A DNA stretch of 63,358 bases, the filler included. It is 6 parts of 6 records of this genome, joined end to end, with 100 filler letters (N's around TTAATTAATTAA, not from the genome) between each part and the next. Parts side by side here need not be neighbours in the genome. Positions count along the whole stretch, not along the records: positions 55,937 to 63,358 come from SRR15195285_3024; 5 more parts are not named here. One strand, given 5' to 3'. The notes beneath the pieces were generated by a model. It made no database searches. It saw nothing but the letters and a program-made list of their open reading frames with translations, and was not told the DNA's origin. The position numbers and the translations under genes are program-made. Of this stretch, positions 9,072 through 63,358 are shown one piece after another (the stretch's first letter is position 1; each line of letters opens with the position of its first letter).

Positions 9072-9171
9072 NNNNNNNNNNNNNNNNNNNNNNNNNNNNN
9101 NNNNNNNNNNNNNNNTTAATTAATTAANNNNNNNNNNNNNNNNNNNNNNNNNNNNNNNNNNNNNNNNNNNN
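9072..9171. other. Artificial contig-joining spacer
   Basis: N44-TTAATTAATTAA-N44, exactly 100 bp; the 12-mer gives stops in all six frames. Confidence 0.99.
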
Positions 9172-16361: not shown

Positions 16362-16405
16362 CTGCCCCCCACAGCCAACAAAACAGAGGTCTGCGCGTCA
16401 GCGAA

Positions 16406-16431: not shown

Positions 16432-16531
16432 NNNNNNNNNNNNNNNNNNNNNNNNNNNNNNNNNNNNNNNNNNNNTTAATTAATTAANNNNNNNNNNNNN
16501 NNNNNNNNNNNNNNNNNNNNNNNNNNNNNNN
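16432..16531. other. Artificial contig-joining spacer
   Basis: N44-TTAATTAATTAA-N44. Confidence 0.99.
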
Positions 16532-31699: not shown

Positions 31700-31799
31700 N
31701 NNNNNNNNNNNNNNNNNNNNNNNNNNNNNNNNNNNNNNNNNNNTTAATTAATTAANNNNNNNNNNNNNNNNNNNNNNNNNNNNNNNNNNNNNNNNNNNN
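31700..31799. other. Artificial contig-joining spacer
   Basis: N44-TTAATTAATTAA-N44. Confidence 0.99.
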
Positions 31800-37700: not shown

Positions 37701-40700
37701 ATGTAGTTGGGGAATTTCAGTGTCTTGGCTGTATGGCCAGTCACTGTGCCCAGACCCTTGACAGCGACTTCAAACTCTGAGCTCGGATAGAAGTTCTGAG
37801 GTCCTGCTTTTAATGCCCCACCCTGCTCCATGATAATTGGTGGTTGCCGCAAACCATCCAATTTCCAACTCTGCACGTGCTCGTCATCACGAACATACTT
37901 GGCCTTCATTGGTTCTTCAACCTCGGCCTCCACCTCCAGCTCTTGCTCTTGCTCCTGCTCTTGCTCTTGCTCTTGCTCCTGCTCCTGCTCTTGCTCCTGC
38001 TCCTGCTCTTGCTCGCCACCGAAGGCCTTCTCCTTCGCCACACCGTCTGGCCCTGTACCATCAGCATCGCTACCAGCAGTCTGCTTCTCCGCAGTACTGA
38101 CGAGGCGTTTTATTTCTGATGCAATTGCATCCTCATCTGGATGTTGGACGAACCCTTCTGCTTTTTTTTCGGCAACCATGTTCCCAATCTTCTCAGCGAA
38201 GCCCTCGGCACTTGGGATTGAGTTTTCTACAGCAAAGTCCACCGGTTCACGGAAGACGTTGATGCAGCTGTATGTGAAGTCGTCGCATTGCGCTGTGCCA
38301 ACCGTCTCGCGATGCTCCATTAAGTGGCGGTAGGCTGCCTTGCGCCAGACATTCTTGACACTCTGTTCGCACAGCAAGTTGAATTGCACTTTCTCTGAAC
38401 GCATTCCATTGACTACGAGCCAAGCACACACATCAGTTATCACGCGTTTATGCTGTTGATGAGGCGACAGCGCGTTAAACAGCCTCTGGAGCGTCTCTGG
38501 AGTCTTTCCTTCACCCCGTGCAACTTGAGTCTTGATTAGCTTATTCACCTCAGGGGTGATGTACAAGTGGATCGTCTGCCCCTGCCCAATGCCCCGCATT
38601 CTATAGGTCCCTTGTGCGTAATCTCGAAATGTCATATCTTTTCCGAGTGTGCACACTGCTTTTGCGTTCAGAACCTGTTTGATGTCCATACCCGTCGTGT
38701 GACACTGGTCGTAGAAAGTAAAACGCTTGCCCCACGGCACTCCACACTGCTCGAGTTTCATCACTTTCATGCCGTCGCGCAGCAGGATCATCTTGCGATC
38801 CAGCTCGTCCAGATACACAGCCCCGTCCATCATGGGCAGGCCGTGGTCGAGCAAATACTTCGCCACTTGGAAGTTTGTCAACCCAGTAATTAACGCGCCT
38901 GTGTCAATCAATGCATGATAGCTGCCAGCGGCAATCTTGTCTAGCATTCTCAGAGGAGTCCAGTCGCTACTCAACACTTCGTATGTCATAAAGTCTGGGT
39001 GAGAGAGGACATGCATGACTTTAGCATCATCGCCTTCTGCATAGTTGCAAGGCTTCAGCTCAACTGGCAAGAGATCACTTGGAGTTCCTGAGAAGCCGTA
39101 CCGGGCACCAAACACTAGGTCACCACCGATCTCCTGGCCGTTGGCAGTCAGGCGGGTCTCCTGAAACTCCATGGTCTCCGGGAAGATTAGCTCGTACAAA
39201 TACTCCTGGATCAAGTGTGGCTGCATTTTGAAGAGTGCATACAAAGGCTCACGATGCTGAGGATCTGCTAGGTCGATTAGCTGCAGCGGTAGCACGTTGT
39301 TCCGATCCTTTTCTTCCTGCGTCATATTACGTTCGTCCAACAAAACGACTGCATCTTTGTTGTGATTATCAAGGTACTCGGACTGCTGGCGTGCTGCCAC
39401 ACCTCGAACCCGTCCACCCGCAAGAGCAACCCAGCGCGCGAACTTGTGCCACGATTCTCGCTTGTTGTACGGTCCGGTCTCAGACTGCAGGTCTTCTTGT
39501 AGCTTCCGCATCAAGGCAACGAAGTCGTCAACCCGCATGCCTTCGAATCGATATGACAGAATTGAAAGTCCAATAATGATGTCGGGGTGAGAAAATTCAC
39601 TTGCTTCACTAGGCACATCCTTTCCAATAAATGGCACAGCAAGAACAGTGCGCGAGCGTGGCATCCTCGGATGTGTCCTTTGCGACCTGACAATATCTTC
39701 AGCGCTAAGTAAGCCATAGCTTACGCGATTGATTTTGCTGATGATGAACGGTAGAAGTGCAGTGAGCCAGTCACGACTGATGTTCAGCATTTTGAAGTCC
39801 TCATCAGAGCAGCGCTCATGAACAATCTCCGTGACTTTTGAACTTCGGCCTTGCATCAAGTATTCATATAGTATATCCTCCGTGAGGCCCGGATCTTTGC
39901 AGCGCTTTTGCATCAACCAGATCAGGATCCATTTGGTCAGCAACGGACGCAACTCAGCATCATAGAATTCACGGCTTAGAATGTGAATGTGCGGTGTCAG
40001 CTGCATGTTTTTCTCTTGGCAACCTTTCGCTATGGTTTCGCTGAGGGTGTTGAGCACAGCCACAGCTTTGCGCTCGCCAAGGTCCACAGTCATACGTTTT
40101 TCTGTATAATAGAGCATTGCATCAAAAAGTACAAACGGTACTTGCCAGCGGAGGCCCAATGCCGAGCGGTTGGTGGTCAAGTCCAGAGGTTTCTTGTCAC
40201 CGAGTGGCCAGTTCAGCTCACTCCGAAGTGGGTGTAGGATCATGTCAACTTCATCCAAAAGCAACACGCCCGTCTGAAACACGTCCAAAATTTTGGTTGC
40301 AAACTCACACTGAGTCCTCATATCTTTCAAGTCTGCCTGGTCATATTCCCTTGCTGTCCTCGCGTCTGCCAGACCAAGCTTTTTTGTGAAGCCACCAAAC
40401 AGACTGGTGGACTGGGCTCCATCTTCCTTGTCTGCGATCGACTCATAGTCCAAGATGCTCAACATTTCGATAATTTTGATGACAAATGATTTAACTGCTG
40501 TTGGAGTTGAACAAACTACCGCGCGCTTGTCGCGAGCTCTGATGAGCTTGTTGTACAGCTCTGGCGTTGTTCTTGTGCGGCGTTCAAATGTGAACGTGTA
40601 CACTGACTTGATGGTTATAGCCGCAAAGGCCGCCCGCATTACTCCACGAGACATATCAAGGAGTGCTCCTGGTACTACCTGTGTCACCAGGCGATCGCCA

Positions 40701-43700
40701 TCTGCAAATGCAAGAGCTAAAAGCGGCGCGACAACGGTAGTCTTGCCTGCGCCCATAATCATCTGATGGCACAAGGACTTGCCGTTCTCAGCTGCTGACA
40801 TAAATTTTCGAACGAGCTCGTACTGTTGCTTGCGCAAAATGAAGCCGATCATAAATTCAAAAATTATGAACTTGGGGTCGTAGTGCAGTCTGCCGCTCGT
40901 GTCAGTGTGCACGCAGTGCCTCTGAGTCGTCAAAAATGTGGCCAGTGTTCCAGCAGTGAGTAAAATGTCTTGGAAGAGTATTTCTGGGTCCTCCCCACCG
41001 CTCAGTGGCAAGTTCTGGATGGACTTGATAATCTTTTTCGTCATCCCTTGGCAACGCAAGGCATGCCCAAGCCTGCACACTGCCAACAATACGCCCACGA
41101 CAAGATCCTGAATAGTCTGAATGGAATTGGGCGTCAAAGATGGGTTCATGTCTTCCAAATCTTGGTCGCCGGAAGAGCTCAACAGCAGGCCAATCAACAG
41201 CTCAAAGTCGATAGTGGGCTCGTCGCCACTCTCCTCGCCCAGCAAAAATGCCTGTTGCTGCCGCAAGATGATTTCGGCCGAGCCACCCAGTGCTATAGTG
41301 CTATTGGCTAAAGCTGTGCAATGGTCAAGAGCTGCTGCGATATACTCGCGATCGTGCGCAACCAGTTCGTCAAGGCCTTGCTCCAACTTTTGTAGACTAG
41401 AAACGGCCACATCAACATGCGGCCCTGGCTCGGCCACGATGCGCCGGATATCAGCATCGAGCATATACTTCATTTTGGGAGTCCGACTCGCGTTTTCTTT
41501 TTCAGCGAAAAACTTAGTGTCATTAGTCAGACGATCATTCATCTGTTTCGCGACGTGTGATTGAGCTGATTGGTGCTTTGTGACATTGAACGGAAGCTTG
41601 GCATCAATGGGTTTCAGTCCTCGGTCTACTTGGGTGAGAGTTACACAGTATCGGTCAAGACCAATTGGAGCTAGCACATCCGAAGCGTGGGCATCAACCT
41701 CCCTTTTGGTCAACCCAGCAGCAGGGCCTGCCTGACTCGCGCATCGAAAGTTGCGCAAGAAGTGGTGGGTCCTCGCAAAATCAGGCACACGCGGACAAAC
41801 AGCTGACCTATCGACCTTCTTGAGTGTGTTGGCGCCCGGCATGATAAAAATCGGCGGCGAGAACCTGTGACTTGCGTGGTCCTTGTCATCGCTGAACAAA
41901 TGCCAATCGGTCTTCGGCCCCGCGTACGCCTCAAGGTCATTAATGTCACCGGCACGCTCCTGTATACATGTCACAACGCTGTCCAGAAACTGACCTCTAG
42001 CTTTCTTCGATCCCATGAGCGCCCCAAGTCCACCGCCCGATTCCTCGACATATGGTGGCGCAGAAGCAGTTAGACCAGGGCTGCTATCCATTGCACGTAA
42101 AATTGCAATCAGCAATCCAGACTGTGTGTCGCCCTCTGGTAGAAGCCGGAGCAAAACAGACCCCAAGCGCGCTGGTGCTTCTTGCACAGACAGCTGGCAG
42201 GGCAAACACCCAGTCAGCAGCTCGTAGAAGAACAGGAAGCCAAGCCCATCAACTGTGCTTGTCAAAGTCAACCCTCCGTCGATCCACTTGTGCAGCAGAG
42301 TTGCAACGTGTCCCGATGTCCACGTCTCCGGGTCCTTCAACGGCCGGCGGTATGCCTGGAGTTTCGCCTTGTCAGTTACACCTGCTGTGGATGTCAAAAG
42401 ACTCGACCTGGCGGACTCGTCCAAAATTGCACTGTCAAAATGCAAACCCTGAGTACCACAGTGTTTCGGGGGGGCGGGGTACTGGACTGGCGCAAAAGTC
42501 TGGGTGTCAGTCTGAGCCAAAGACTTGGCAAAAGCCTCAAGGTACGCCTGCCGGTTGACAAGATGGAGTGGTTTCCTTTCATCAGGAACCTGGTAGATCA
42601 GATCGAACTCCTCCCTGTGCGTCAGTCGACATGCCGCACGAACGTGCTGACGAACAGCCACGTACATGCGAAGCTCAGTTTCCACATTCCAAACACAGGG
42701 CATTGCATCTTCACATCCCATAGTCACCAAGGACATTTTTAGCCTGCACGCGCAGGCGTCCGGGTGCGCGTCGTATTCAACCTGGGCAATCTGCTTCCAA
42801 ATTTGGCTTTCCTCGCCAGAAAGTTTAGTATCGCTCAGGCACGAATCGGCCAACTTAAATGCTGAGCCATACGATCCGGTAAACAGCCGCCAAACCATGA
42901 GATACATTGCTGATGCCAGCGTGGATGCAATCAAGTAAGTACCGGATAAATGAATCGGATACAGGTAATGGCGGACGTCACCGAGATTACTCAGCCAGTC
43001 CTGATCAGCTCTCTCCGTCAACACTGCGCCTTCAAATCGAACGGGCTTCGTCCCAGCAGGGACAAGAATGCTAAACTCATTCGCGGAGTTTTCGAGGAGT
43101 AAACTTGTTGGCAAACCATCCAATAAGTGTATCAGCAGAGGCGAACGGACGTCAGAAACGAACATACCGTTGTGGTCATTAGAATACAACCGAACTTCGC
43201 CGTTCTGTTCCTGGACAGAAAATGACAGCTGAAGGCGGGGCAGCTCAATCAAATCAACAGAGACGGCTGCTGCCCCCGGCTGTGAAGTACTCCACACCAG
43301 AATATGCGAAAAGTCTTCCAGTCGGAGCAGCAGCTTGCGCAACTGACTGCTGACCAGCCCGGAGTCTGGGCCCGACGATAACAGGTTTAGCAGTGTCAGA
43401 TTTCGTGTGCTGCTATCAATCTGGAAATCGTAAGCATCTTCCATGGTGACAGCAACTCGTGTAATCCTACTGGACGCCTGCGAGTTGCACATGCCAGACA
43501 TGTCAGGCTCGCTAGCACTCAGCAATTCCACCGTGATGATGGTCGTATTCACTGCGCCTTTACGCTTGTGTGGCAACGGATATCCAATCATGTCGTCAGC
43601 GTCATCCTGCCAGAACTCATAGTCACTCAGCAAAGCATCGGGCAAAATGCCGCGAAGAAAACGACGAGGTATGTACGTCTGAATGCCGAATGCAGACGTT

Positions 43701-46700
43701 ACATTCCTAGTCAGCGTAAGGGTGTGTTCGCGTTGCCAGGTCAACGCTGGATTGCTTATGACGTTGCCATCCACGTCTTTCACAACTTCCATCATACTAC
43801 CGGAATAGCTTCCAACCTGGTTGCCCAGTACAAATGGGTTCGGGGGCATATCATGCAAGCAGTTGACCGTACTAGAAGAAAATATTAGCTGCCTTTGCCA
43901 GCGCCGACCATACTCCACAATGTTGTACACGTGTACTGCTGGTGGGTCACGAATGACAACCAGTTCATGTAGTGGTTCATCCTGGTTCATCGGCGTGCCG
44001 TCGTTCGGGTCCTTCTCGAGCAAGAAAAATCCAGCAAGTCGCACAACATTGGCAGCCGAACCATCCTGAGGCTGAATGCCCAGGCGCATGCTATGTTGAT
44101 ACGGCTCAAGCCATGAGCTGAGCTGATCTGCCACCCATCTTTCACCGGACTTCAGGCCGCTTGGAAACGGCCTTGTGCAGTCGCTCAGCGGTCTTCCAAT
44201 AGCCATACCTGACTCTGACTTCGCAGGGCACCACGGTTCCCACCAGTGCACATCGTGACGTCGCCCGACCAGTCGCAGCCAAGTTCGGTTTTCTGTCTTT
44301 CGGACCGCAGCACATTGAATGGCAAACGATCCGGACTTTCCAAAGATCTCCTCAAAATCTTGGTGCTGAGATATCTGTGTAGGAAGCACCTGCATCGATT
44401 GCTTTCTCAGTGTAAACGTGCCGAGCTGCACATTGATCTCAGTCTCAACTTCTTGCGTCGTCATGAACACCAGCCAATCCTCATAACTTTCAAACTCCGG
44501 AGTCGGCTTTTTCTGTCGCGCCTCAATCTCCGTGTCCGGCTGAAAGCGGCCCGCGTAGCCTGGCTCTGGCGAACTTTGCCAGTGGCGCGGCGCCAAGTGT
44601 GCTGTGCTCAGCCCGGTGCCCTCATCTTTTTCGGCCTCTTGAATGTCAGTCATGGTCAGGGCGCGTTCGATTGCCTCCATCACGGCGTCACACTCTGATG
44701 GGTGCAATGTTAGCCATGCTAAGCATTTATTCTTGTGCCTCTGAAATAGATCGAACACTTCAGTCTGGTCTATTCCGAGGCCAGTCCCCAGCCCTTCGTC
44801 AGCGTGATCGGTACGTGATCCTGTGCCGTCGACAGCATCCATATCGAACTTGTAATTGTTGTGAAGGAACATCTGAGCTGTTAGAAGCGTCTGCACCGCT
44901 GTCTGGTCCAGGGTCAATTCTGTTACATTCTTCATCATAAACGCCAAATGCGTGTGAAGAATTGCTGTTTCCCTGACTAACTTGTCTTTGGTACAGCGTC
45001 TGCACCATCCAGAGACGAGGGGGAAGAAGTCAGACATAAGCCGTGTGCGAATCGTGGATTGGATGTTGCCGATTGACTTCAGGCCATGTGGCTCACACTC
45101 CAGGCCGCGCACAAAAGACCTTGCCGAGCAACCACTGTAATCATCTTGTACCCGCCATGCAGCATGTTCTAGCTGGCACATACAGAAGCCTTCGATGCGC
45201 ACCAGCAGTCGCAAAATGTACAATATATGTGGAGAAGAGTTCCATGAAAACTTTCCCTCGTCCATTTCAACCACGAAAGCAACCATCGCTTCAACAGCCT
45301 CGAGCAAAAGATCCGGGGCATATCTGAGCTCGTTGAACAGTAGCCCACAAGGAGTCGCTAGATGGTCGCGTGTCGACGACGGCACTGTCTGTGGTAGTGG
45401 CTTGTCTGGGTCGCGCTGCCACTCGCCCGGTTCGAAGAGACATGCATCCAATACAACCTGCAATTCATCCGAGGCAAGTGCAGTAATTCTCATCTGATCG
45501 CTGAAGAATTGCATCGCCAACGGGATTCGAAGATATGGTGCTGTTAGGTATTGCAGCAGCAGTTCGCTGTTTCGCCCTTGTAATCTGCCGTCGAAGGTCG
45601 GAAGGTGTCGCACGTGTAAGATGTCCTCCTCTGTGCGAACATCTTCGTCGACAAGATTACTTGGGTCTCCACCGCTCAGCGGTTTGCGAGGCTTCTTCCT
45701 CAGCCGCGCCATCAAACTACCCTTCTGTTTAGATTCCTCATCTTCTGATACAAATGCTGCACATTTGAGAGGCTGACCAAAACCGTTGACACTGAATTCT
45801 CCGTTACCCCTGTGAGCTTTGCCATTGTGCTGCCACCGCAAGGCAGCATCCCTGGGGCGCCATTTCTTCAACGGTGGCAACGCATCAGATGTTGGCACCA
45901 TGAACGCTTTGCAGAAGTACACGATGTCTCGGAAAAAAGCTAGCTCAGGAAAGCTATCTATCAGGTCGCGCTCCTCGTAGCAAAGATACTTTGCCAGGGT
46001 ATGGTCAATCTCAGCTTCACTCAACCGTCGGGCGAAGCCTGAGGCCAAGCATACTTGATCGAGCAAGCCAACCTCTCCATCACCCATCGTCATTGATTGT
46101 TCAAACCGAAAAATCGTGTGTGCTTCGTCTACAACACTACGCTGCTGGTGGAAGTAATCCAAGATTTGAGTCCGAGCAGTGTTGAGTTCCGGGTTACTGA
46201 AAACGGCTGTCTCCGTTTCCTTTTCGAAATGCCCCATTTGAAAGCCGTAAGGTTGCACTGGGCCATCAGCCTCACCAGAATAGTGCAAGCTTAGCACAGA
46301 CGGGTCGTCACATGCTGCGATGCGCATAATTGCGTCTGACACACAAGCCATGCAGCCCATGACTAGCATCCTTACGGCATCAAACGAGCGTGTCGCGTTC
46401 AGAGAAAGTGATGCTGACGAGTAGTGCCGACATAGCATGTCCAAAGACCGAAGCATGTCGGCTTGATCAACGTACAACAACGGCTGAGCACTCCAGAAGC
46501 ATCGTCTTTCTCGCTCTGGGTGATTATGCGGCAGCGGTAATGGTATCACACGTGTGAACAGGTGCTGAATGAGCGCCACACGTTGCAGATACGAGTTCTG
46601 CACGATGTTTCGTTGGTTGTCCAACCGAGTGCACAACTTAACGCATGTTCTTAAGGCAGCACCCGCTTCGCGATTGTTCGTGACTTTGTCCAGCATGCTG

Positions 46701-48980
46701 GTCAGTTCAACTGGTAGCTCGACCTGAGGTTTCGCACCACCGCCCTCTAGGGCATCAGCGGAGACATCTCTGCGTAACCGTCCAAAGAGCGGAAACTGTG
46801 ACGTTTCTGACGGAAGATTGCCGAGAAGTGAGACGTCTAGCATCGGTGGTTCGTGCGCGTGCACTAGTGAGTCCACTTTGTTTTCGATGCCTTGTGTCGA
46901 CTCATGTATCTTGGACAGTTGCTCGCTGTTGACTTCAGAAAATTCTTCACGGCCTGCTTCTTGCGCATATTTTGCCATCTGGTGACATGCAGTTTCAATC
47001 AACATGGCATCTGATTCTTGAATAGGTGATATATTCAAGTCCTGCTCAGTCCACCTGATCAAAGTCACACGAAGAAACACGGTGACGCATTGAGCCTGTG
47101 ACGGCAGCAGCCCTGACCATATTAGTGTGTGCCGGACACCTTCGAGGACAGCCTGAAAGTGAGATACGTCGCCAGAGCTTGGTGGTGCCGGCCAGTTCCC
47201 AGAAAACACCTTGTGCATCCCTTCATATCCAAACTTGTTCGCCAGCAAGGGTTTTCGGTTCAACATTGGCAAAATCTTTTCGTAAAAGTGCGCTGGCCCA
47301 TTGTTTTTCGATGGGAAGACCAACATGCGGAACGCAACAAACCAGAAAGAGATGCTTGTGACGAGTTCAGAACAGAGATCATATAAGGCCACGGACTGTG
47401 CCTGCAATAGATCTCCAGTGGTGGTGTCCGGGGCCATCGGTAGGTATCCGTGACTTCCCGAGCCCGTGTGGCACGCTGCCAGCGCAAACTTTCCGTCGGG
47501 ACGACGATGTAGCACCAAAGGGAGTGCAACTCCCTTCTGTCCCCCCCTACCACCTGTAGCCCACCCACCGGGTAGGAAGACAGAATCACCCGTGCTCATT
47601 TGCGAGATATGCTGAACCACCGTCTCTAAGTACACACAGAAGCGAGTGCCATCACGACTGTAGGCCGGCAGCCCACTGATAAGACTCATTGAACCCGTCA
47701 GAGCGGATGCAGCCTGCTGCAACGCCGTGCACGCCACGCATGAACCCGCCAGGTGCATCATTGCTTTGCCTACCAGATCCATCGATGCATACAGGTTCGA
47801 TACTCCAGGAGGGAACTTTTCGTGTCGTGCAGCTGTGGTCTCTGTTGAATCGGCCAGAGCATCCAGAAATGCAGGGTGTCGCCAAACTGGTGCAGTAACA
47901 GCTGCAACGCTCGCGCGGACGCCACTTTCCTCATCTATACCGCTATCTTGAGCGGATGGAGGCAGGCCTGCACTTGCACGCACAGCATCGTTGCTGGCCG
48001 CGGCGTTGGCCATTGCTCTGGAGTCTTCATTCGACGCAAGCAAGAAAACGTCTTTCGGGTCAGGTTGCTTTCCACTTGCCTTGGCTGATGCTACCCGCAT
48101 ACTTGCGTCTCGAATGTCCTTGTTGCCCATAGCCTTGGCCGCAGTATCGCGAACAGCCTTATCGCCCAACAACGCGCCTCCGGGCATAGCTGCTACTTGC
48201 CCACTTGCAGACGTATCTACGGCCTTACCAATAAACGTCAGCATTTCTAAGGCGGGTGTTGGGCCGGTGGGTGTGGTGACCACTGCATCGAGGTTCAAAC
48301 AGTCAACTGCTGTTGCTACGAACGCCGGACGAATGAAATGAAAATCTGCCTCATCCCCGTCAAGTTGCCCCAAAGCAGCAACCACATCTGCCATGCAGTG
48401 CACTTCGGTGCTGTTCACCCCTATTAGCATGTGTCCGCGCTTGACTCCCGCTGCAACAGCAGGTGGTGCACCTTTTTCTGCCAAATCAATGAAATGGGCC
48501 ACCACAGGGTACTCCAGGTGCTCCTTGAGGCCGAGGCAAAACCCCAGTCCGGGAACCTTTTTCAACCGAGTCGACAGAGCCTCGCTTCCTTGGAGAGAGC
48601 CGGCCCATGGGTCAGGTGGAGCCGTGGTGCTGGGCTCTCCAAAATAGTTGGACTCATCATCAATCTGCACACCTTCCACTTGTGCGACGCCTGCTGTAAA
48701 GCTGCGACCTCGAACCAAGATGCTCCCAGCACTGATCTCCACGGCATCGTCTTCCGCGTCGGCTGCTGCGAACCATTTCTTGATGCTCATACGCGCCTCT
48801 TTGCTAAGAACGGACTTGTCAACCGGCCGATCGGGTCGCCGCACCACTGGCGGAGGAGGTGGAGCTGGAGCTTGAGCTGGAGCGGAAGCAGCCCTAGTAG
48901 CCAGCTGCTCTGGCTCCGGCCCTGGCTCTGGGCCTGATCTTGGGCTCGGCTGCGGCTCCGGCTCCGGCTCGGGCTCCGGC
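34736..48980 (-). CDS. Giant (>4700 aa) DUF3638/DUF3645 P-loop protein with PDZ, EF-hands, Vps62-like repeats and a C-terminal SH3; 5'-partial
   Basis: Uninterrupted ORF, open to the contig edge (PEPEPE...). HQMIMGAGKTTVVAPLL (Walker A, DUF3638), LLLDEVD, LAVPFIGKDVPSEASEFSHPD (DUF3645), GFSGT, QGTYRMR. EF loops DTNNSGALSSSE and DSDSDGFLSFYD. SIWRP/WKPVPP/IWND repeats. SH3 motifs QLSF..G, WLRG, GYFPANHVE. PDZ-like PGLGFCL...AAGVKRG. Confidence 0.88.
37939..38014 (-). repeat. (Glu-Gln)n coding hexanucleotide repeat
   Basis: (GAGCAR)n encoding about 12 EQ units within the giant ORF. Confidence 0.9.
48930..48980 (-). repeat. Degenerate (GAGCCG)n Glu-Pro coding repeat at contig end; similar tracts at 1-21 and 31670-31699
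   Basis: Repeated GGCTCC/GGCTCG units abutting the spacer, in frame with the giant ORF. Confidence 0.85.
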
Positions 48981-49080
48981 NNNNNNNNNNNNNNNNNNNN
49001 NNNNNNNNNNNNNNNNNNNNNNNNTTAATTAATTAANNNNNNNNNNNNNNNNNNNNNNNNNNNNNNNNNNNNNNNNNNNN
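48981..49080. other. Artificial contig-joining spacer
   Basis: N44-TTAATTAATTAA-N44. Confidence 0.99.
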
Positions 49081-52106: not shown

Positions 52107-55100
52107 TTAGTAGGGCTGTAGTGATGCGAGCAGTTCGTCCTTCCCCTGAGTAAACTCCGCCTCCGTAATGAGATCTTCATCGGCGAGTTCAGCAAGCTCT
52201 CTTATTTTTTGAGCCAAGATTCCTCGAGGCGAAGCATTCCCACGGCCACTGTTTGGAGGTACTGCCTCATCTACGTCAACTTCGTCGTCTACCACAGAAA
52301 GATTTGTGGAGACATGACTACGCAGTCCAGTGGTGCCAGTGGACAGCATTTGGATCTCTCTGCGCGCCAGCGACAGTTGATCTTCGGCATCCCTGTGCTT
52401 TTGGGTATTTCTGGATAGCTCCCACTCAAGAAGAGCCAATGCCTCTTCTGTCTTGGCTGCCACAGCCCGTGCCTCGTCTGCACGCCTGTCAGCCGTTCGG
52501 GTGTCAGCTTGCGCACGAGAAAGCTCAGCTTGGCATAAGGCGAGTTCTTGTTGCAGCGTCACCAGTCCGGCTTCATTTTCGGCCGCGCGCTGGCGCGAAG
52601 CTTTCAATGCTGCGTCCCGCTCCAGCTCTGCAACACGCTTGGCCTCTTCGACATCTGCCATCTGCGTACGGAGAACCATTGCGTCGGATGTTGCTGCTGA
52701 CTTCGCTGCCGCAAGGCTGTCAAGTCGCCCTTCGGCAGCTGCGCAGCGCCGAGTCGCAGCCTGTGTTTGCGCTGAGATCTCTGCTTCAGCTGCTGCGATT
52801 TCTGCCTCCGCTTCATGCTTTCGCCACTCTCGCTCCCATTCGAAAAGCTGCTTCTCTGCCTCTATCTCTGCCATAAGCATATCATTTTCTTGCCTGGCAG
52901 ACTCAGTAACTGCCCGACTTTTCTCTAGTTCCTTAGCGAGGGTTCGTTCATGGGCTTCTGTGCGTTCGCGTGCCACAGCTGCTTTACGCTCAAGCTCTGC
53001 AACACGATCACTCAGGTCTTTCCTTTGATCTACCACGGACTTGAGACGCGTTGCCGAATCAGCCGCCTCACGCTCCAAGCGAGTCTTATCCGCCTCCACC
53101 TCTGACAGCATTTCCTCTGCACGGCCTGCCCTATCCTGAGTGGTCGTCAGCTGTGCTCGTAATTGGCGATGCTCTTCAGCCGCAAGGTCAGCGGCTTCGG
53201 CCGCTTTGTGCTGTGTGCTGACAGCGTCGGATGTCAACGTGCGCAGCTGTTCTTCGAGCTTTCGGCGAACATCTTGATCATGCCGCCGCAACGAAAGTGC
53301 CTGCGCTTGTTGTTGTGCCAACTCAGCTGCGTGTGCTGCCTGCAATTCATCAACCTCCTCGTCTTTGATCACAAGCATTTGCTCAACTCCGCTTAGTGTC
53401 GTTGCTAGCTGTGCTTCACGATTGCCACTCTGTTCGAGTGCCTTCGTAGCTTCTGCTGCCTCCTGCTCTGCAACTTTGAGCCTCTCAACAAATGCAGACT
53501 CCGCTTCGGCTGCTTCGGTTCGGCAGTTCGCCAACTGAACTAATGCTTTCTCGAGTTCAGGGTCGGTACTTTGATCCTCGATGATGCCTGCATATGCCTG
53601 TGTAGCGGCAAGTTGCTCTAATTCGTCCTCGCGCCTCAAGAGCTCGCGGCGCACGCCATCTGCCTCCTGCTCAGCCTGCAGTTTTGCATTGGCATCGTGA
53701 CGAGCTACACGTGTCAGCTCTGCTATTCGCATTTGCAGCTGGCTTTGCTCTTCCTCATGTGCTATTGCTTGTGTAGCCGCTGCGGTCCGAGCCTCGGCCA
53801 ATTCTTTTCTCACGGATTGCAATGCGTCCATGGGCAGAGAGTCCTGTGGTGCGACTATGTCTCTATGCAGACCCATTGCCATGACAAGCTGTTGGCCGAT
53901 AGCATCAGCTTGCTGTTCTGGAGTTGCATCGACTACCTGCCGCAACGCTGCTTCGGCTTGTGCGAGTTTTTGTCGCAAACTCACCAGCTCTGCTTGTGTA
54001 GCATGGTCTTGTGATGGGCTGCTGACTGCAGCGCCTGCCTGTCGCATTCGCCAGACTTCATCTTCCAGCTCCTGCAGTTTCGACTGTGCCAAGGTCGCAG
54101 CCCGTGCCGCTGAACGTTCAGACTCAATAGTGGCAGCTGCCGACTCATCGGCGCGCTGGTTAGCTAGCTCAAGAAGTTGCGACTGATCGTCAGAGCTTTG
54201 CCTGAGGGCCGTCAGTTGCTCATCTCGTACCTTCAGCTCAGCTTCGAATGAATCACGCATTCTCTGTTTTGCAGCATCCTGAGCAGCTTCGCTGCGTGCC
54301 AGCTGGTCCTCAAACTTGGATTGTATCTCAGCAATCCGGCTGCTCCACTCAGCATCTGTACTCTGCCTGTCTGCCTCAAATCTTGACCGGGCCTGTGCCA
54401 TCTTATCTTCGAGCGCTGCTCGGGAAGTTTCTTCGGCCTTCAATCGCTGCTTCAGTTTGCTGATGCTGGCTGAATGCTTGTCTACCTGCGCATCGCATCT
54501 TTGCTGCAACCTTTGTATTTTGGCAGAAGCAACAGCTTCCGACTCAGCGCTGGCAGCACGCAGTCGATCAACCTCGACTTGCAGTGCACGCATTGCTGAT
54601 TGATCTCCGTCTCTTCGGGTGGATTCAGCTGCAGCAGTCGCAACGACTGCCTCTTCCGCCTGCTGCAAAGCACCAGCCATACGTTGTTTCTCAACATCGA
54701 GTAGTTCCGCGGACTGGACTGCCTTGTCAGTAGCAACCGCCAGATCTTCGGTCAGCTGTCTGACTGTAGCCTGTGCAGCATTGAACTTTGTAGTCCAGTC
54801 TGCAATTTCCTGTCCGGCCGAAGTTGCTTCCTCCTCCATGCGAAGAAGCTGGGCCTGTAGCCCTGCGATGCGAGAGCGGGCATCTGCCAGCTCACCCTCA
54901 ATTATCGAACCCGTGTTTTGCTGTTGATCAATCCGTGCGGAACGAGCAGTCTCTTCAGTTTCCAATGCTTCCTGCGTCCGTCGCAGAGCAGCTTGAGAGC
55001 TTTCAAGGTCCACAGTGGCTTGTGTTTGGTACGCAGCAAACTCATCTACTTTGGATGCGAGCTCGCCGCGCGTTTCCTCATGCACAGTCTGTTCGGCTGC

Positions 55101-55836
55101 GAGATTTGCTCGACAGGCTGCATGCGCGTCAGTTTCACGTGCGAGCTGGGCGCGACATTGAGCGTGTGAGGCCTGCTCAGCTGCAAGGTCTGCCTTGAAC
55201 ACCGCACATGCACTCCGTTCAGCATCGAGGTCGGATTGCAGGCGATGAACCTGCATTTCGAAGTCCTTGGCACCGTCAGCGGACTGCACTTGCTCTTGTA
55301 GTGCCGCTACCTCATCTTCTAGATCGTGCACACGAGATTCACGACCTGCATACTGTTGCAGCTGTGCCTGCAGCGCGTTGATTTCCTTCGCATATTCTGT
55401 CTTGGCGGTTGCCATATTCTCATCTGCAACTTTTTGAAGCGTGGCCAACTGCTTCGTGACCAACTCAAGCTTCGCATATAACTCTGAATCAGTTTTCGGA
55501 TCTGGAAAGCTCGGCGGACGTTTTGACTGCAACGCCACTTGCTTCGAAACTGATAAAGCTGGCTCAGGGGCAGGACTGTCCTGCACAGCTGATTCTGGTG
55601 ACGATCGATCACGATGCAAAGTGCCACGTTCAGCTTGGTTAGGTGCCGCATCAGTGACTGGACTGATCGCGCCTGTCGTACTCGGAGAGGAAACTTGAAC
55701 GCCAAGGCTTTCCGTCGGCACCAAGGCAGCCAGCCTTGTTTCGACCTTTACCCTCTTCTCTTCCATTCTGCTCTGAGTCTTTGCATCTTTCTGCTGCATC
55801 CAAGAACTTGCCAAGATCTGTTTTATGATCACAAGG
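52107..55836 (-). CDS. Long coiled-coil protein with a C-terminal SHOCT-like motif; 5'-partial
   Basis: More than 1000 aa of E/A/Q/R/L-rich heptads; ends with KIRELAELADEDLITEAEFTQGKDELL. Confidence 0.75.
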
Positions 55837-55936
55837 NNNNNNNNNNNNNNNNNNNNNNNNNNNNNNNNNNNNNNNNNNNNTTAATTAATTAANNNNNNNN
55901 NNNNNNNNNNNNNNNNNNNNNNNNNNNNNNNNNNNN
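55837..55936. other. Artificial contig-joining spacer
   Basis: N44-TTAATTAATTAA-N44. Confidence 0.99.
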
Positions 55937-56752: not shown

Positions 56753-59700
56753 CTACGGCTCGGGCGGGACACTTTCGGACGGAGGCTTAGTTTGTCGTGG
56801 TGGTGTTCTGGCACGCGCCACAACGCGAGCAACTGTGCGCGGCTTCTTGGTGCCATGTGACTGATTCTTCGTGATCGCTGTGTCCAGCGTGGTGCGTTTG
56901 ATCGTCTTGCCAACAGTCGCCATCTCGCGGCGCAACGTGAGCTCTATGTCGCACATCTGGGCCTCGAACTCTGTGTCCGTGCCACCAACTGACAATGGCT
57001 TAGAGATAACGTTCGGAATGGTCTGCAAGAGCTCACTACCCACTGCGGCAGTAGCAACACCTGTGGCCTGCTCGAGCGATGCAATCGACGGCGAGCTGAG
57101 ATGAGCGCCAAGCTCCGAGAACGTCGACTTGGCCTGCTCGAAGTTCCATTGGTCAAATTTACGTTGATCAACTGAGCCGTCGGCCGTGTCGCCAGCCGTA
57201 CCCGTCAACAGAACCGGAACTATTGGCACCCGGTTGGTAGATGCACTGTACAAGCGAGCCAAGCAGCGTGGTTCTGCCAGGACCTGTGCTGACTGCAGCA
57301 GCAAAACGGTATCGGTTTGCGTCGCGACCACGTCACAGTCCGCTGACGTGGCTTCGTTGATGTCTCGGCTATCCTGGTCGGTACAGAGAACAACGTGATC
57401 AGGCTCTAGGTCACAGCGCCGCTGTAGCCATGCCTTGACGTCCTCTGCTAGCTGACGGATGGGAGACTCAGATCCGGATCCAAGCTGCTCGCTGAACACT
57501 ACATAAATTGCTATCTGCCTGCAGACAGTCCACGGCTCCGGCTGCTTCGGCAGCAAATCTGGCAGCAGCACGGAGTTCTCAGGGCAGGCCCGTTCTACCA
57601 TCGCCTGAGCCAGGGCACTGATCTGAGACTGCAGGACAACGGAGCTCTGGTTTGGGTCGAAGGTCAAGGCACGGCTAGACGAGGCTGACAAGCCGTCAGA
57701 AAGTGCAGCCGCAATCAGTGGTCCAATATTGGCCGCATCGAGGTTGATTGTCTTCAGGTCTTCTATCGCCGAAGGGTTCGTCTGCCGCAGGTATGCCGGG
57801 AGGTCCTTGAGGATTTCCAAAGCCTTCTGCGCGCCATCAGCCATTTTGAAAGCATTGTTGATGTTGAGTACTGTGATCGGCACGTTAGCGGATGCAGCAG
57901 TGCTGAGCTCAGCCAGACACCACGGACGAGACAATACACCATTGGTGAGCATCAAGATGAGCACATCGGTTTCGGCGACACAAGCCTGCAGCTCTCGCAG
58001 GTCCGACAGAGAGTCTGCGTCCAAAAATATCTTTTCGTCGGGTGTGCGCAGGGCCTTCAGCAGCTCCAACTTAAGTATGCGAGCCTCGGCAGCAGCTTCG
58101 GCCTTGAAATGGCTCAAAAATGTGGCATAGCGCTTCTTGATTGACCAACCCTCGATGAACCTGCGCAAGATTTGCTTTTCCTTATCACTGGCCAACCCCA
58201 ACACATGAAGCTCAAAAGCCCTGCGCCGTACTTCTGTAGGTGCAATCTCGTCGGTTTTCAGCGCATCCTCAACCACTTGTGACATGTAGCGAACCTTGGC
58301 GATGACCGTTGCCACAAATGCGACCGGTATTAGCAAGATGAAGGATGCGAACAACACCGCATCGTAGGCTTCTGCCGTCACGCTTTCTATCGATAGGTCT
58401 GTCTTATATACAAGCGCGACAGAAATGGCAATGAAAACGTGCAGCTCTGTAGCTGCCCGGAAGGCATTATCAGCCATGACCTTGTACGGCAGCATCAGAA
58501 CATGAAGGGCCAAAAACGATAGAGACATCACGAGAGCAACCGAGAGCTGAAACGTGCTCCCACGTCCAGCCATGAGGACAAGTCCGACCAACGTGAGTTT
58601 TCGAAGCATGTCGATAGCTTCCCACCACAGATAGAGAGGCTTGTATGCATCCATTACGAAGGACAGGTCTCGACCAAGCACAATATCGCGGACAGCGTAC
58701 GCTGCCGTCGTCACGTCAGCGCCCAGGTCTACAGCCAGCCGCTTTGCCACCGGTGTGTACGATTCCTGAGATTCCCGACCGTAGTTTTGTGCCTTCTTGA
58801 TCAAGACTACCAGTAAAAGGATTGGCAGGCTGATGGACACAAGCACAATCACAATCACTGATGCAATCTGTATCGCGACGTGCGATGCGTCTTCGCACAT
58901 AACAGAGTCATCAAGCTCGAGAAAGCTTGACGAGGCGGTCAAGGGTCGGCACATGAATGATGCAAAGGCTACGATGCATATTGTCGGATAGCAAAAAAAT
59001 ACCTGCAGAAGACAATGCCAGCATTCTCGTTAAGTTAAGGTGAACCAAATGGCAGCAATTTCACGCAAACATTGAACCGGTGTTTAATCTGATATTGTAC
59101 GGAGTAGGTACAACAAATGCCAGGTTGCTCCTGGCGGCGGAAATGGCCTCTGTGCGGTCGCGAATCCGCATATGCACACAGCAAATTATGAACACGACGA
59201 GCGACATGATGCCTGGTAAGCCCAACACGCGCAGAAACCACCTAGAGTTGAAACCGCCCAGACCAAAACACTCGCTGGGACCGAGAGCACGGAACAGCAA
59301 TCCCCACAAGTCGATCAGAGGCCGCAAAATTTCAATCACATCGCCGAAAAGTCCAGGAAACTGAAAATCGAGGATATCGCCTAGTTGTGATGTGACCTGC
59401 GAATAGGTGATGAGAATACGCAGTGGCTGTGCAGCGCATCGGATGACGTGCTTAAGAGGAAAGTTCTTCCATTTTTTCCCAGCTAGAAAGAGCAAGAGCA
59501 GGATGCCTACAAGTGTCGCGATGAGAGCTGCAAGCCCCCCCCAGGTGTATCCAGTATCCTCGCACGGGACGCACTCACTGTTGCTCATCCCGTAGCCGTC
59601 ACTGCACTCACCGCAGATGATGCCCGTATATCCGGTGTTGCACTGCGGACCCTCTTGCAGTCGCCGTGCAGTTCCAGTCGATGAACCAGGACACCTCTTG

Positions 59701-62700
59701 ATTCCGGTCGACATATCATTGTGACAGCGGAATATGGACAAGGTCATTGAGTCTTGATCTAGCGGTAGCGGCGAAATAAAGCCTGGGCGCACAGTGCTCA
59801 GTCCATCTTCACACAGCAAGCATGGTTCGCCAGTCTGGTCGGTGGGGCAGGAGTCACAGTCAATGCCGGTCGGTGTGCTCTCGTCACGAACAAACGAATC
59901 CTGTAGCTGCGTAGCATCAAATCCACGGCTGTAACAGATTTGAACACTCGCAGTGGCGTTGTAAGAACCTGTACTACAGAGACACTGAGTGCTGTCCGCA
60001 TTTGGTGCTGTTTGCAGTGGACAGGCATCACACAGCACTTGTCCTGATCCGGGTGCCACTGTGCCTGCCCCGCAATCATCGCAAAATCCCAGTTCGCTGT
60101 ATTTGCCGGGGCTGCACGCGTCGCAGCCATCTTTCAGGCTGTTCGGCTCTGTTCCTGATAAACAACGGTAGCACGTCTTCCCGTCGCCGTATTCATTCAC
60201 ACTGCAAGGGTCGCAGAAGAGGGACAGCTGAGAAATTCTGCATCGTTCTCCCACGCTGCATGGAAAGCTAGAGCAGTCGTAAGCAGGTGTGCCCTCTGCT
60301 AAGACGGTGTTGGACGTAGGGGCTGCAAAATCAGAATGAGACACCTTAAAAGACTCAAATGAGGCTACAGAGATCGCACTTGCTGATCCAGCCGAGTTGT
60401 CAGAGAACGTCGCCCCTATGATCTCAAGGGTACTGCCGTCGGTCGCGGTAATAGCACCACCAACGCCCTGCGGGACAACAAAGTCCGTTTTGCTCCAGAC
60501 CTTGTGTCCGTTGGGACAAGGAACCACGCCCTCAGGGAGGGATGATGTGTCCAGCTGGGTGTAGCAGCCTGGAGTCCTGACCTGGTCTGACCACGGGTCT
60601 GAGCACTGCAACATTCGACTATCGCACACAGTCGGGGTCATCTTCGAGAGTATACCCATGATGTCTATCCAGCCTCCACCTTCCCAGTCACGCGCCTGTG
60701 CGCCTGCGTCTATGTGCAGCCCGTGCCAGAGAGTGTGTGGACCAGTCGATGTAGACACTACATGGGCATAGGTGCTCTGCACATCATACTCATTTAATCC
60801 GTGAATTGTGTCGTTGCCGCAGGATCCGTCTATCTGATCTGGCTGTACTCCATCGAGTTTCCATATAGGGGTAAAATATCCGGTACGCCCCAGTGACCCA
60901 GTGTACACGTGCACAACGATATCTCGAAGCACCTGTACCTCACGCCTGGCTTGATTTGCGTTGAAAATGGAGTCCAGGATGATTAACGATCCACTGCCGA
61001 ATTTTCTTATGGCTCCTCCACTATCCCAAGCAATGTTGCCTTGGAATAGACAGCCTATGATCTCGAAGTCAGCTGGGCCCTGAAGGACGGCCCCTCCGCC
61101 CAGTGCCGCCGAGCTGTCTACGACGCTAAGATTCACGAGCTTCGCCGAGACGTATACAACAAGTCCCAAGGAGCCACCCTCAGCTATAGCTACCTCTCCG
61201 CTACTACGAATACGATTGCGAGCAAACCTGCTTCCCCTAACCTCAACAATATCGACCGTTGTCATTAAAGCCGCAGTCATCTTCATAGTCTGTGCGACAG
61301 CCTCGTGATCGTTCAACTCAGAGTTGGTTACTGTTAAGGCATAACACGCTCCAGCGCACGGCGACTTGCCTTCTGCAATAAAGCCAGGGTATATCGTCCC
61401 GATATTGTCGTGGCTGTATAGCTGATCGACATTGATGTACGTCCACACGTCTGGTCTTTCAGTGCCAGGACCGACCGGTCTGTGTCCTGGAAGGGCGATA
61501 GGAAATGCGAGAGGACACAAATCAAAGCGTCCATCCTCACCATACCATCTAAACTGATCGACACCTGCAAGCTCGACTCGGGAAAGCGAAATGTGAGTCG
61601 TCCCATCTATCCCGGTGCCTTCGTCGAACACGCTACCGTACAACGTCCAAGCTATCTGACCGATGTACGCCCAACACTCTATCAGCTGGGAATCCGTAAT
61701 AGTCAGGTTCATGGGATAAATATCGATTAGACGCATGATACCCCCAGCCCACATGCCTTGCAGCTCCCAAAACAAACAGTCGTGAACGATAATTGTGGTG
61801 GTGAGGGCTTGCGGATCTCGCCGCAGTGTCTCATTGCGTGACCACATGGCCGTCTCCCCATGAATGTACGCGGCGGCTCCAGATGTCGCAAAGATGTGGT
61901 CAAATACGCAGTGCTCGAAGATTAGTGAAGCGCCCCACCCTCCTATGTACTCTAGCACCCCGCCTAATCTGGAACCAGACGCCACTTCCGAATGAGACCT
62001 ATGGCCCGCATCTTTGTCCAACGTCGCTTGCTGATTCGAGAAGCGGACGTGCCGTAGGACGAGGCTAGCCGTTGAGAGAACCCACTCCCACCCATTTTCT
62101 GTTTCTACCCCATAGCCACTCTTGAACCGCGCATCTAACTTGACTGGTAGGTCGTCGACGAGGCCGCCGTGCACTATCCACTGCTCGTCGAGTGGAATGA
62201 CTATCGTCTTGTCGGGAACGAAGCTCACGACCTCAATGGATCCATGCCATTCGTCGCCACTTTGCCTAGTTAGGGTGTAGTTGCTATCAGACATGCAAGC
62301 AACGTGCTCGTATACTCCAGGACCAGCTGGTGTGGAGAAGTCCCATGGACCACCGCTCGTGGACACGTCACTGCTCGCACTTGTCAATGTCCATTCAGCC
62401 GCAGGATCAATCTCGCTCATGCTCATCCGTATGATTGTATCAGTGCACGTGTCAGTGTCGCCACTTCCAACACCAAAGCTAAGTGTCGCACCCACCGGGT
62501 GCGTTCGTGGGAGGAATGTGGTCCAATCGAGACGGTCTTGTCGCATGCTCATCAACTCACTGGGCCAACTTGCAGTTATTCTGTCGTACATGAAGCAACG
62601 AGAGGGGCGATCCGGGAAGTAGTATTGTTGCAGTGTAGCACAATCGTAGTCGCATGGTCCGGTCGCGCCGTTGTTGCTCGACAGCGGGTCATCGCAGAGC

Positions 62701-63098
62701 GTTTGTCGAGAAGATGGTTGTAAGTCATCGGCCTGTTCTATCTGGTCCCACTCAACAGCAGGTGCGGTGGAGTTCGTCAGAAGAGTCGAGCTGTCGTAGG
62801 TCCACATGTCTACCCATTCGCTGCCGGGCCCATTCTGAGTGCGGCGGCGCAAGCGTTTCAGGTTTGCAGCAGATTGCCGCCCCGCACGCAGCTCGGTGTC
62901 CCAATTGCCAGGCTGGGAAGTCGCAGATCGTTGCTCCCAGCCCTTCAAAGCTGCTGCCACGTCTGCGGACGATGGCGCCGACGAGGAGAGGCCCATGGCG
63001 TCGAGCTCTGGCACAGTTGTGAGAACACCGCCATCCTGCTGAGCTGTCACAGCGCAGACGACGGCACCAAGGCAGACAATCCCCGCTTGCGAGAACAT
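56753..63098 (-). CDS. Cell-surface receptor-like protein: signal peptide, parallel beta-helix (Pmp-like) repeats, Cys-rich repeats, multi-pass TM module, tandem TIR domains; exons 63098-59112 and 59002-56753
   Basis: Signal-like MFSQAGIVCLGAVVCAVTA. FQGNIAWDSGGAI and GGAIT..FSDNSA repeats. CDACSPGKYS and CNTGYTGIICGECSDGYG. TM module LRILITYSQV, YPT, YKPLYLWWEAIDMLRK. TIR: YATFLSHFKAEA, IFLDAD, VLSRPWCLAEL. The intron at 59003-59111 joins the two ORFs in frame (LAFV|VFFCYPT). Confidence 0.87.
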
Positions 63099-63358
63099 GA
63101 TCACGAACGGGAGTATGCCGGTCAGGCGGTACAAGCTACAAGTACGCGGCGGAGTGGTCCAGCGCGCCGTAATGCTGTCGTTGCACCGCCGGCGTCAGTA
63201 ACGGCTTTGGGCGTGCCTGGAGGGGAGCCAATGTATGGGAGGGTGGCAGTGATTTGTATCCCGCGGGAGGTGGCAGTGACGCAGTGACGCCCTGCAGGGG
63301 ACCGCTCGCCGCCGCCGGTTTACTTTCAGCTTTGTCGTGGGACGGGAATTCAGACGTG

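Follow-up and report, generated by a model that had tools for sequence, protein, structure and literature searches.

A putative protist surface receptor that joins a Pkd2-like nine-helix core to a Glu-bearing TIR domain and its Glu-less duplicate

TIR domains link the immunity of bacteria, plants and animals; their wiring to the cell surface in free-living protists is almost unknown. Here, we describe a gene on the minus strand, at positions 56753-63098, of a stretch of DNA of 63,358 nucleotides, filler included (“the window”). The window consists of six parts joined end to end; all positions given here are counted along the whole joined stretch, in which parts lying side by side need not be neighbours in the genome. 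Two coding exons together specify a protein of 2078 amino acids, in which a large ectodomain and a predicted nine-helix membrane module are followed by two TIR units in tandem, the first of which (TIR1) carries Glu at the probable counterpart of the catalytic position of well-known TIR enzymes, and the second of which (unit 2) does not. In the reading that we prefer, and to which we assign a probability of roughly 0.5, the protein is a plasma-membrane sensor composed of the ectodomain, a Pkd2-like core, an NAD+-cleaving TIR1 and a non-catalytic unit 2.

TIR1 comprises residues 289-477 of exon 2 (57572-58138, minus strand), as delimited by the fold match of model residues 30-208 to the TIR of SARM1, and includes a helical insert. 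Its candidate catalytic residue, Glu 1694 (57908-57910, minus strand), belongs to the motif WCLAEL (57905-57922) and was assigned from its position in the sequence and from the model helix formed by residues 99-110; a conserved Glu in helix C is a mark of NAD+-cleaving TIRs, including those of bacterial Thoeris and SPARTA, and in SARM1 and the plant enzymes this Glu is the catalytic residue. The tandem was modelled from exon-2 residues 262-700 with an alignment of 38 rows, resulting in a predicted local distance difference test score (pLDDT) of 91.3 and a predicted template modelling score (pTM) of 0.72, and structures were compared by VIA-align over the top 998 chains of Foldseek. The best structural match of TIR1 (matched region overall, model residues 28-216; for unit 2, 232-438) is the SARM1 TIR (9mw2_A; Z 15.4, root-mean-square deviation (rmsd) 1.9 Å, 128 aligned residues, 19% identity), followed by RUN1 and Caenorhabditis elegans TIR-1, both with Z 14.3; the TIRs of MyD88, MAL and the interleukin-1 receptor (IL-1R) family also match the TIR folds, at Z 11-12.5. 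Foldseek itself returned six matches for the tandem model at E<=0.001, with RPP1 in first place and the TIR of RPS4 at a probability of 1.0. A helical insert of about 50 residues between strands D and E is present in both TIR1 and unit 2. Judged from its sequence, TIR1 retains all checkable marks of NAD+-cleaving TIRs, its activity being a prediction only; the role of the conserved TIR Glu is put in general terms in published reports (PMC12489294; bioRxiv 10.64898/2026.04.20.719644). A lone thioredoxin-reductase row (E 1.2), obtained when the exon 2 protein was searched against PDB sequences, was dismissed as a chance match.

A first-pass annotation of this DNA had pointed to a second TIR-like unit with Arg at the place of the Glu, and this description was borne out. 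Unit 2 spans exon-2 residues 493-699 (56906-57526, minus strand; delimited by hhalign and by VIA at model residues 232-436), and the profile alignment sets Arg 1912 of the motif CLARL (57254-57256, minus strand) on Glu 1694 of TIR1. The motifs named in that annotation, namely, WCLAEL with its Glu, the Y-x5-WWE-x4-RK signature of the membrane region, and DTVLLLQS (57290-57313), VLAEPRCLARL (57251-57283) and VPIVPV (57212-57229, all minus strand) of unit 2, were all located, and the positions quoted in it were exact. Structure prediction and structure search, which it had suggested for both units, gave TIR folds in both cases; unit 2 best matches 4c6t_D (Z 13.8, rmsd 3.3 Å, 154 aligned residues), followed by RPP1 (Z 13.5) and RPS4 (Z 13.4), and its profile retrieved nothing relevant from the PDB sequences. 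When the two units, taken from an alignment of 24 rows, were compared by hhalign, they matched over 145 columns with a probability of 99.2% (P 7.9e-20), and six controls—the reversed profile (P 0.14) and five column shuffles (P 0.023-0.33)—stayed far from this value. Because the score lies so far beyond its controls, unit 2 is, on profile evidence, an internal duplicate of TIR1, insert included. It lacks the FLSH-K motif of strand A and keeps strongly conserved motifs; with a mean identity to the window protein of 41% among 17 proteins, versus 53% for unit 1, it is still under constraint and diverges somewhat faster than unit 1.

How general the loss of Glu is can be seen from a census, in which hidden Markov models (HMMs) of unit 1 and unit 2 were run against 162 non-redundant proteins (P0003-P0164), many of them fragments. 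At least one unit was found in 81 of the 162, namely, unit 1 followed by unit 2 in 43, unit 1 only in 23, two unit-1-type domains in 11, and unit 2 only in 4. In the unit-1-type domains, the Glu column holds E in 77 of 88 and gaps in the other 11, with no other residue occurring (77/77 ungapped). In the 47 unit-2-type domains, the same column is occupied by R (18), Q (5), L (4), E (3), A, C, S, K and V (2 each), G and H (1 each) and gaps (5), so that Glu is missing from 39 of the 42 ungapped domains and Arg is found in 18 of the 42. One of the three unit-2-type domains that retain Glu is that of Prymnesium P0015, and the 11 proteins with two unit-1-type domains (e.g., Prymnesium parvum P0016), which are more distant, have Glu in both TIRs. 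As far as sequences tell, the loss of Glu is the general rule, and Arg at this position marks the closest subfamily only. The likely history is that of two Glu-bearing TIRs in tandem, the second of which later lost its Glu, with the fixation of Arg probably limited to the near relatives of the window protein. Invariance of the Glu in TIR1 together with its free loss in unit 2 suggests that the Glu itself is under selection.

Between the ectodomain and the TIRs, residues 1186-1564 (58298-59543, minus strand, with the intron inside) form the predicted nine-helix module, placed by mapping a model of the relative P0003 to the window. P0003 was folded in place of the window protein, whose module the intron divides; the part folded comprises 674 residues, from the final Cys repeat through the entire membrane region to TIR1, with an alignment of 28 rows (pLDDT 83.9, pTM 0.72). 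The first-pass annotation had counted about eight to nine membrane helices, and nine are seen in the model of this 73%-identical protein (residues 34-57, 63-90, 131-160, 163-191, 216 to about 245, 304-321, 327-346, 353-377 and 387 to about 412), the outer loop from helix 2 to helix 3 being helical and a small beta-hairpin lying between helices 4 and 5. The Y-x5-WWE-x4-RK signature (58598-58645, minus strand), which is kept in the family consensus, lies in the P0003 model at the cytosolic entry of helix 6. Charge bias in the window protein follows the same layout, as Lys and Arg number 19 in cytosolic loops versus 4 in outer loops, Asp and Glu are in excess outside, and the outer loops 2-3 and 4-5 contain one Cys each. 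Nine helices with the ectodomain outside would place the TIRs in the cytosol, hence, the model predicts an N-out/C-in topology with both TIRs cytosolic.

The membrane part is seemingly more than an anchor. The window protein itself scores just 8.8 bits against the Pfam family TRP (PF06011; E 0.83, curated cut-off 28.5), whereas P0032, which is 51% identical across the module, reaches 35.4 bits, P0028 25.4 bits, and at E<=0.01 the profile is matched by 8 relatives out of 28; thus, via close homologues, the module is related to the putative channel module of Pkd2/PF06011. Pkd2, Trp663 and Trp1322, which we take to be the founders of this family, share the layout predicted for the window protein, with an outer N-terminal domain, nine helices and a cytosolic C-terminus. 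The relation does not extend to the flanks, since the ectodomain of the window protein is an approximately 1160-residue beta-helix/Cys-rich region and that of Pkd2 a small Ig-like lipid-binding domain, and the two TIRs stand where Pkd2 has a disordered coiled coil. Among solved structures, Foldseek found no match to the P0003 model at E<=0.001 (rows for KefC, Slo1 and GPCRs had TM-scores of about 0.1), and in a wide VIA search all 50 rows among the matches listed fell on TIR1, the TIR having filled the lists.

These observations bear on a reading in which the channel comes first, i.e., the nine helices would constitute a Pkd2-like, stretch- or ligand-gated Ca2+ channel, and the TIRs, instead of being the output of a receptor, would tune or report its gating via Ca2+ or NAD-derived nucleotides. 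The PF06011 scores of P0032 and other relatives speak in its favour, as do the occurrence of EF-hands behind the tandem TIRs in some relatives (5 of 24 and 7 of 33 in two sets) and the pairing of the module with a kinase (P0062) or other tails. The extracellular N-terminal domain, nine membrane helices and cytosolic tail described for Pkd2, Trp663 and Trp1322 of Schizosaccharomyces pombe (bioRxiv 10.1101/2022.08.11.503631) correspond in layout, and Pkd2 is reported to be permeable to Ca2+ under stretch (PMC9727806). However, the window's own TRP score is low, no solved membrane fold was matched among the rows listed, and the exchange of ectodomains on a common core resembles a receptor repertoire; moreover, the channel status of Pkd2 is itself termed putative (bioRxiv 10.1101/2022.08.11.503631; PMC9727806). 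We regard a primary channel function as rather improbable. A bolder variant, which we would call a long shot, is a “chanzyme”: a Pkd2-like gated, Ca2+-permeable channel whose TIR would make ADP-ribose (ADPR)- or cyclic ADPR (cADPR)-type nucleotides at the channel mouth, with unit 2 and its conserved Arg serving as a nucleotide sensor that feeds back on gating, and with EF-hand paralogues closing the Ca2+ loop. If true, this would be a self-contained switch from the cell surface to an immune second messenger, unlike described TIR or TRP systems.

According to the preferred reading of a sensor with an enzymatic TIR, a ligand bound by the ectodomain, or membrane stress sensed via the nine-helix core, would alter the packing of receptor molecules; TIR1 domains would then self-associate and cleave NAD+, yielding an ADPR-type signal or NAD+ depletion. 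Unit 2 could act in cis, either as a brake on TIR1 or by providing the other, non-catalytic half of an asymmetric pair of TIRs. Within the family, one core would be combined with swapped ectodomains (lectin, LRR/CUB, ANF-receptor, beta-helix), giving a modular repertoire that fits pattern recognition or environmental sensing. Indirect support for the activity of TIR1 comes from the invariant Glu and from best structural matches to catalytic TIRs. As for precedents, TIRs of one choanoflagellate, one amoebozoan, one cryptophyte and one oomycete are reported to make cADPR in a Glu-dependent manner (bioRxiv 10.64898/2026.04.20.719644), and a membrane-tethered TIR NADase, the tether of which limits toxicity, is described from an amoeba (bioRxiv 10.64898/2026.04.30.722052).

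Several points weigh against this reading. The window protein itself reaches only 22.2-23.5 bits with the Pfam profile TIR_2 (PF13676; E 2e-4 to 9e-5), which is under the cut-off of 28, and the only protein that the TIR1 profile retrieves from PDB sequences is TIRAP (E ~0.2). The predicted topology depends on the model of the 73%-identical homologue and on an assumed signal peptide, the role given to unit 2 is purely conjectural, and the idea of a function in immunity draws solely on analogy and on the modularity of the family. In addition, certain Glu-bearing TIRs are reported to be inactive in vitro (bioRxiv 10.64898/2026.04.20.719644). With regard to the TIR_2- and TRP-type profiles, which the first-pass annotation had suggested for a check, relatives exceed the cut-offs and the window protein remains under both; TIR_2 is matched by 22 of 24 relatives at E<=0.01 (best E 2.4e-10), and its cut-off is passed by P0006 (35.5 bits), P0138 (40.4 bits) and P0149 (42 bits).

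The TIRs of Toll-like receptors (TLRs) and IL-1R have classically been held to be protein-protein adaptors, and both TIRs of the window protein might likewise be mere scaffolds which, after ligand binding, recruit TIR or other partners without NAD+ chemistry. The structural matches to MyD88, MAL and IL-1R-family TIRs would agree with such a role, and so would the restriction of the sequence-level PDB matches to TIRAP and IL1RAPL, both of which are retrieved by P0138 (E ~0.1), the clear lack of Glu in one of the two TIRs and the in vitro inactivity of some Glu-bearing TIRs. Difficult to reconcile with it are the strict conservation of Glu in 77 of 77 ungapped unit-1-type domains, as opposed to its free loss from the paralogous unit 2, and the fact that the top structural matches (SARM1 at 1.9 Å, RUN1, TIR-1) are catalytic TIRs; we consider a purely scaffolding function unlikely.

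That all these parts belong to a single protein follows from the gene model. Two long open reading frames (ORFs) lie at the locus on the minus strand, at 59061-63134 and 56753-58954. Coding exon 1 (59112-63098, minus strand; 1329 amino acids, starting with the ATG at 63098) was defined by its ORF, its translation and its alignment with full-length relatives, and contains the putative signal peptide, the ectodomain, helices 1-3 and the start of helix 4. It is followed by an intron of 109 nucleotides (59003-59111, minus strand) with GT at 59111-59110 and AG at 59004-59003, across which the frame shifts by one, and by coding exon 2 (56753-59002, minus strand; 749 amino acids translated from 59002-56756, with the stop codon at 56753-56755), which contributes helices 4-9, the linker, TIR1, unit 2 and the tail. 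Excision of the intron gives an exact in-frame join, with the junction lying within a hydrophobic membrane helix, helix 4. The relatives P0003 (73% identical), P0004, P0005, P0007, P0008 and P0009 are full-length and uninterrupted across this junction, and P0019, an 89%-identical gene model of a relative, begins at the start point of exon 2, as expected if the gene caller overlooked the same intron. The single spliced gene of about 2080 amino acids proposed earlier can, accordingly, be regarded as confirmed on the sequence level, with the splice deduced from relatives.

In marine RNA, seven runs contained small shares of the gene's words, and 15 short contigs from four of these runs map to the gene, 11 to exon 2 and 4 to exon 1; identity to the gene is >=99% for 14 of them and 95-99% for the remaining one, and one extends 49 nucleotides beyond the stop codon. 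Both exons are, thus, represented in poly-A-selected marine RNA libraries. At the intron, for which the first-pass annotation had called for a transcript check, none of the 15 contigs from the four marine runs spans 59003-59111, and no joint was reported. The absent bridging contig is no argument against splicing, and it is the reason why splicing rests on homology. An annotation artefact—two separate genes, or an exon 2 that is a pseudogene remnant, and no 2078-residue protein at all—might be argued from this missing contig, from the fact that read-through without splicing would end at 59061, and from the orthologue that a gene caller split in a relative (P0019). It is hardly credible given that the junction falls in a conserved membrane helix which is continuous in at least six full-length relatives, that the GT..AG intron restores the frame exactly, that the frames are open over 1329 and 749 codons, and that both exons occur in RNA libraries at >=99% identity. 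No second gene copy was found by tblastn of both exons within the 63-kb window.

The ectodomain of about 1160 residues, which extends to residue 1185 and bears most of the 51 Cys and 7 N-x-S/T sites, starts with a signal-peptide-like N-terminus (residues ~1-20; 63039-63098, minus strand; hydropathy 1.91 over residues 1-20); the relative P0005 likewise begins with a hydrophobic leader. Putative PMP-like beta-helix repeats of the type GGxI...FxxN (residues ~625-901; 60396-61226, minus strand) were assigned from motif counts, with GG[AGS][IVLAM] and FxxN occurring four times each in the ectodomain and three motif pairs (667/685, 694/712 and 880/898) showing a spacing of exactly 18 residues. Motif enrichment is only modest, as the observed counts were reached in 5 of 500 and 14 of 500 shuffles. 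No match of the window protein to Chlam_PMP (PF02415) or Beta_helix was obtained in Pfam at E<=1; among 28 relatives, four match Chlam_PMP and two Beta_helix. The Cys-rich repeats (residues ~942-1179; 59562-60275, minus strand), with nine CxxC pairs identified from the Cys positions, have Pfam matches that are all under the curated cut-offs (TNFR_ELAPOR1_6th, E 2.2e-4; DUF7630, E 3.6e-3; Ephrin_rec_like, E 0.013), and a sequence search of the exon 1 protein against the PDB yielded nothing. The GGAI/FxxN-type and Cys-rich motifs of the first-pass annotation are present, and to call this region “PMP-like beta-helix plus Cys-rich repeats” is reasonable, albeit unproven. At the opposite end of the protein, the last 50 residues (56756-56905, minus strand) make up a basic and Pro-rich tail, read from the translation, that lies outside the folded model.

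Members of the family are numerous and likely represent modular receptors for sensing or immunity. A full HMMER scan with exon 2 retrieved 4110 cluster representatives at E<=1e-3, of which 966 reached E<=1e-10 and 124 reached E<=1e-30, totals which pool matches to the membrane module with matches to the TIRs; a longer homologue search, run with the profile of the tandem TIRs, brought in just two new proteins, both weak. Alternative ectodomains on the same core include a C-type lectin with ephrin-receptor-like repeats (P0008), CUB with LRR (P0010), ANF-receptor (Prymnesium P0015, P0016 and P0018) and beta-helix or PMP repeats. On the cytosolic side, P0062 combines the nine-helix module with a protein kinase (Pkinase, E 4.5e-11), P0053 and P0017 combine it with a common unnamed region, and P0088 has another tail, too; the module looks like a general receptor chassis. 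TIR1-like domains, in turn, are joined to NB-ARC (PF00931) in two of 33 relatives, both marine proteins, and, in a protein of Emiliania huxleyi, to the receiver domain of a response regulator (these being among P0231, P0232 and P0233). None of the databases searched names a function for any relative, the entries being labelled “hypothetical protein” or, at most, EF-hand. Among named relatives, the EukProt entries Picozoa sp. COSAG01 and COSAG06 come closest, from which the host, a marine protist, may tentatively be taken to be a picozoan or a relative, bearing in mind that single-cell assemblies can contain foreign DNA.

Compared with known systems, TIR1 shares with SARM1/TIR-1 and with the TIRs of plant TNLs (RUN1, RPS4, RPP1) the TIR fold and a Glu that stands in a turn of the W-C-x-x-E type where helix C begins. 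In contrast to these proteins, it is found without ARM/SAM or NB-ARC/LRR context, is tethered to a nine-helix protein and followed by a Glu-less duplicate, and has the insert of about 50 residues between strands D and E, with identities of only 10-20%. In the plant RPS4/RRS1 pair, in which the RRS1 TIR restrains RPS4, an intact TIR likewise stands beside a Glu-less partner of TIR fold, and the best match of unit 2, 4c6t_D, is from the entry of this very heterodimer; in the window protein, however, the two TIRs belong to a single chain and go back to an internal duplication, the likeness being one of folds. With Toll-like and IL-1 receptors, the protein shares the common plan of a surface ectodomain and cytosolic TIRs. 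Its nine helices instead of one, the lack of LRR or Ig matches in exon 1 (Pfam, E<=1) and a TIR1 that is closer to catalytic TIRs than to those of TLRs set it apart, in line with the non-Toll, multi-pass surface protein envisaged at the outset, which in this member has no LRR/Ig ectodomain.

Tandem TIRs as such are known from the C-termini of mollusc Tolls (PMC4929906) and from Dictyostelium TirE (bioRxiv 10.64898/2026.04.30.722052). In Gephyrocapsa huxleyi, TIR proteins that combine an intracellular TIR and a conserved Glu with either an extracellular region or several membrane helices have been proposed to be receptor-like; their induction sets in within 0.5 h after virus is added (PMC12489294). 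The example given there crosses the membrane with a single helix and bears one TIR, and the available portion of that account makes no mention of a tandem TIR, a pseudo-TIR or a PF06011 module (PMC12489294); the families may overlap. Haptophyte members of the window's family exist in Prymnesium (P0015, P0016 and P0018). Our literature search found no paper in which a TIR is joined to a nine-helix module of the PF06011 type, none on a tandem of active and pseudo-TIR on a nine-helix core, and none mentioning TIRs in Picozoa. TIR-bearing surface receptors are already known, and what was not found in print is the fusion with the nine-helix core and the Glu-less duplicate. The attribute “undescribed” of the first-pass annotation must be narrowed to this fusion, given the membrane TIRs reported from haptophytes in 2025 and the catalytic protist TIRs reported in 2026 (PMC12489294; bioRxiv 10.64898/2026.04.20.719644).

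The architecture of variable ectodomain, Pkd2-like core, Glu-bearing TIR and Glu-less duplicate, or part of it, recurs with exchanged ectodomains in thousands of sequence clusters of marine eukaryotes. If TIR1 is active, it would represent a route from a surface receptor to NAD-derived signalling that is independent of TLRs and plant NLRs, and it would form, with unit 2, a natural pair of active and pseudo-TIR within one chain. The family could also serve as a marker for protist-virus or protist-bacteria interactions in ocean metatranscriptomes.

Elsewhere in the window, filler consisting of two 44-N runs around 12 bases separates the joined parts at 9072-9171, 16432-16531, 31700-31799, 48981-49080 and 55837-55936. 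Next along the stretch, at 52107-55832 (minus strand), lies an ORF of 1241 amino acids, rich in Ala, Glu and Gln, with an apparent long coiled coil and no Pfam match at E<=1e-4. A single ORF of 4703 amino acids at 34736-48847 (minus strand) comprises DUF3638, DUF3645, several EF-hands and a Vps62 region. An ADP-ribose writer and reader, with Macro, FYVE, WWE and PARP catalytic domains, is encoded by a 1492-residue ORF at 27208-31686 (minus strand), about 25 kb from the TIR gene along the joined stretch, with no evidence of a link between the two. Finally, a SAM-domain PI3/PI4-kinase gene at 12545-16381 (minus strand) and a gene at 3-4931 (plus strand) for an armadillo-repeat protein fused to a choline-transporter-like region have few or no introns, which fits a compact protist nuclear genome.

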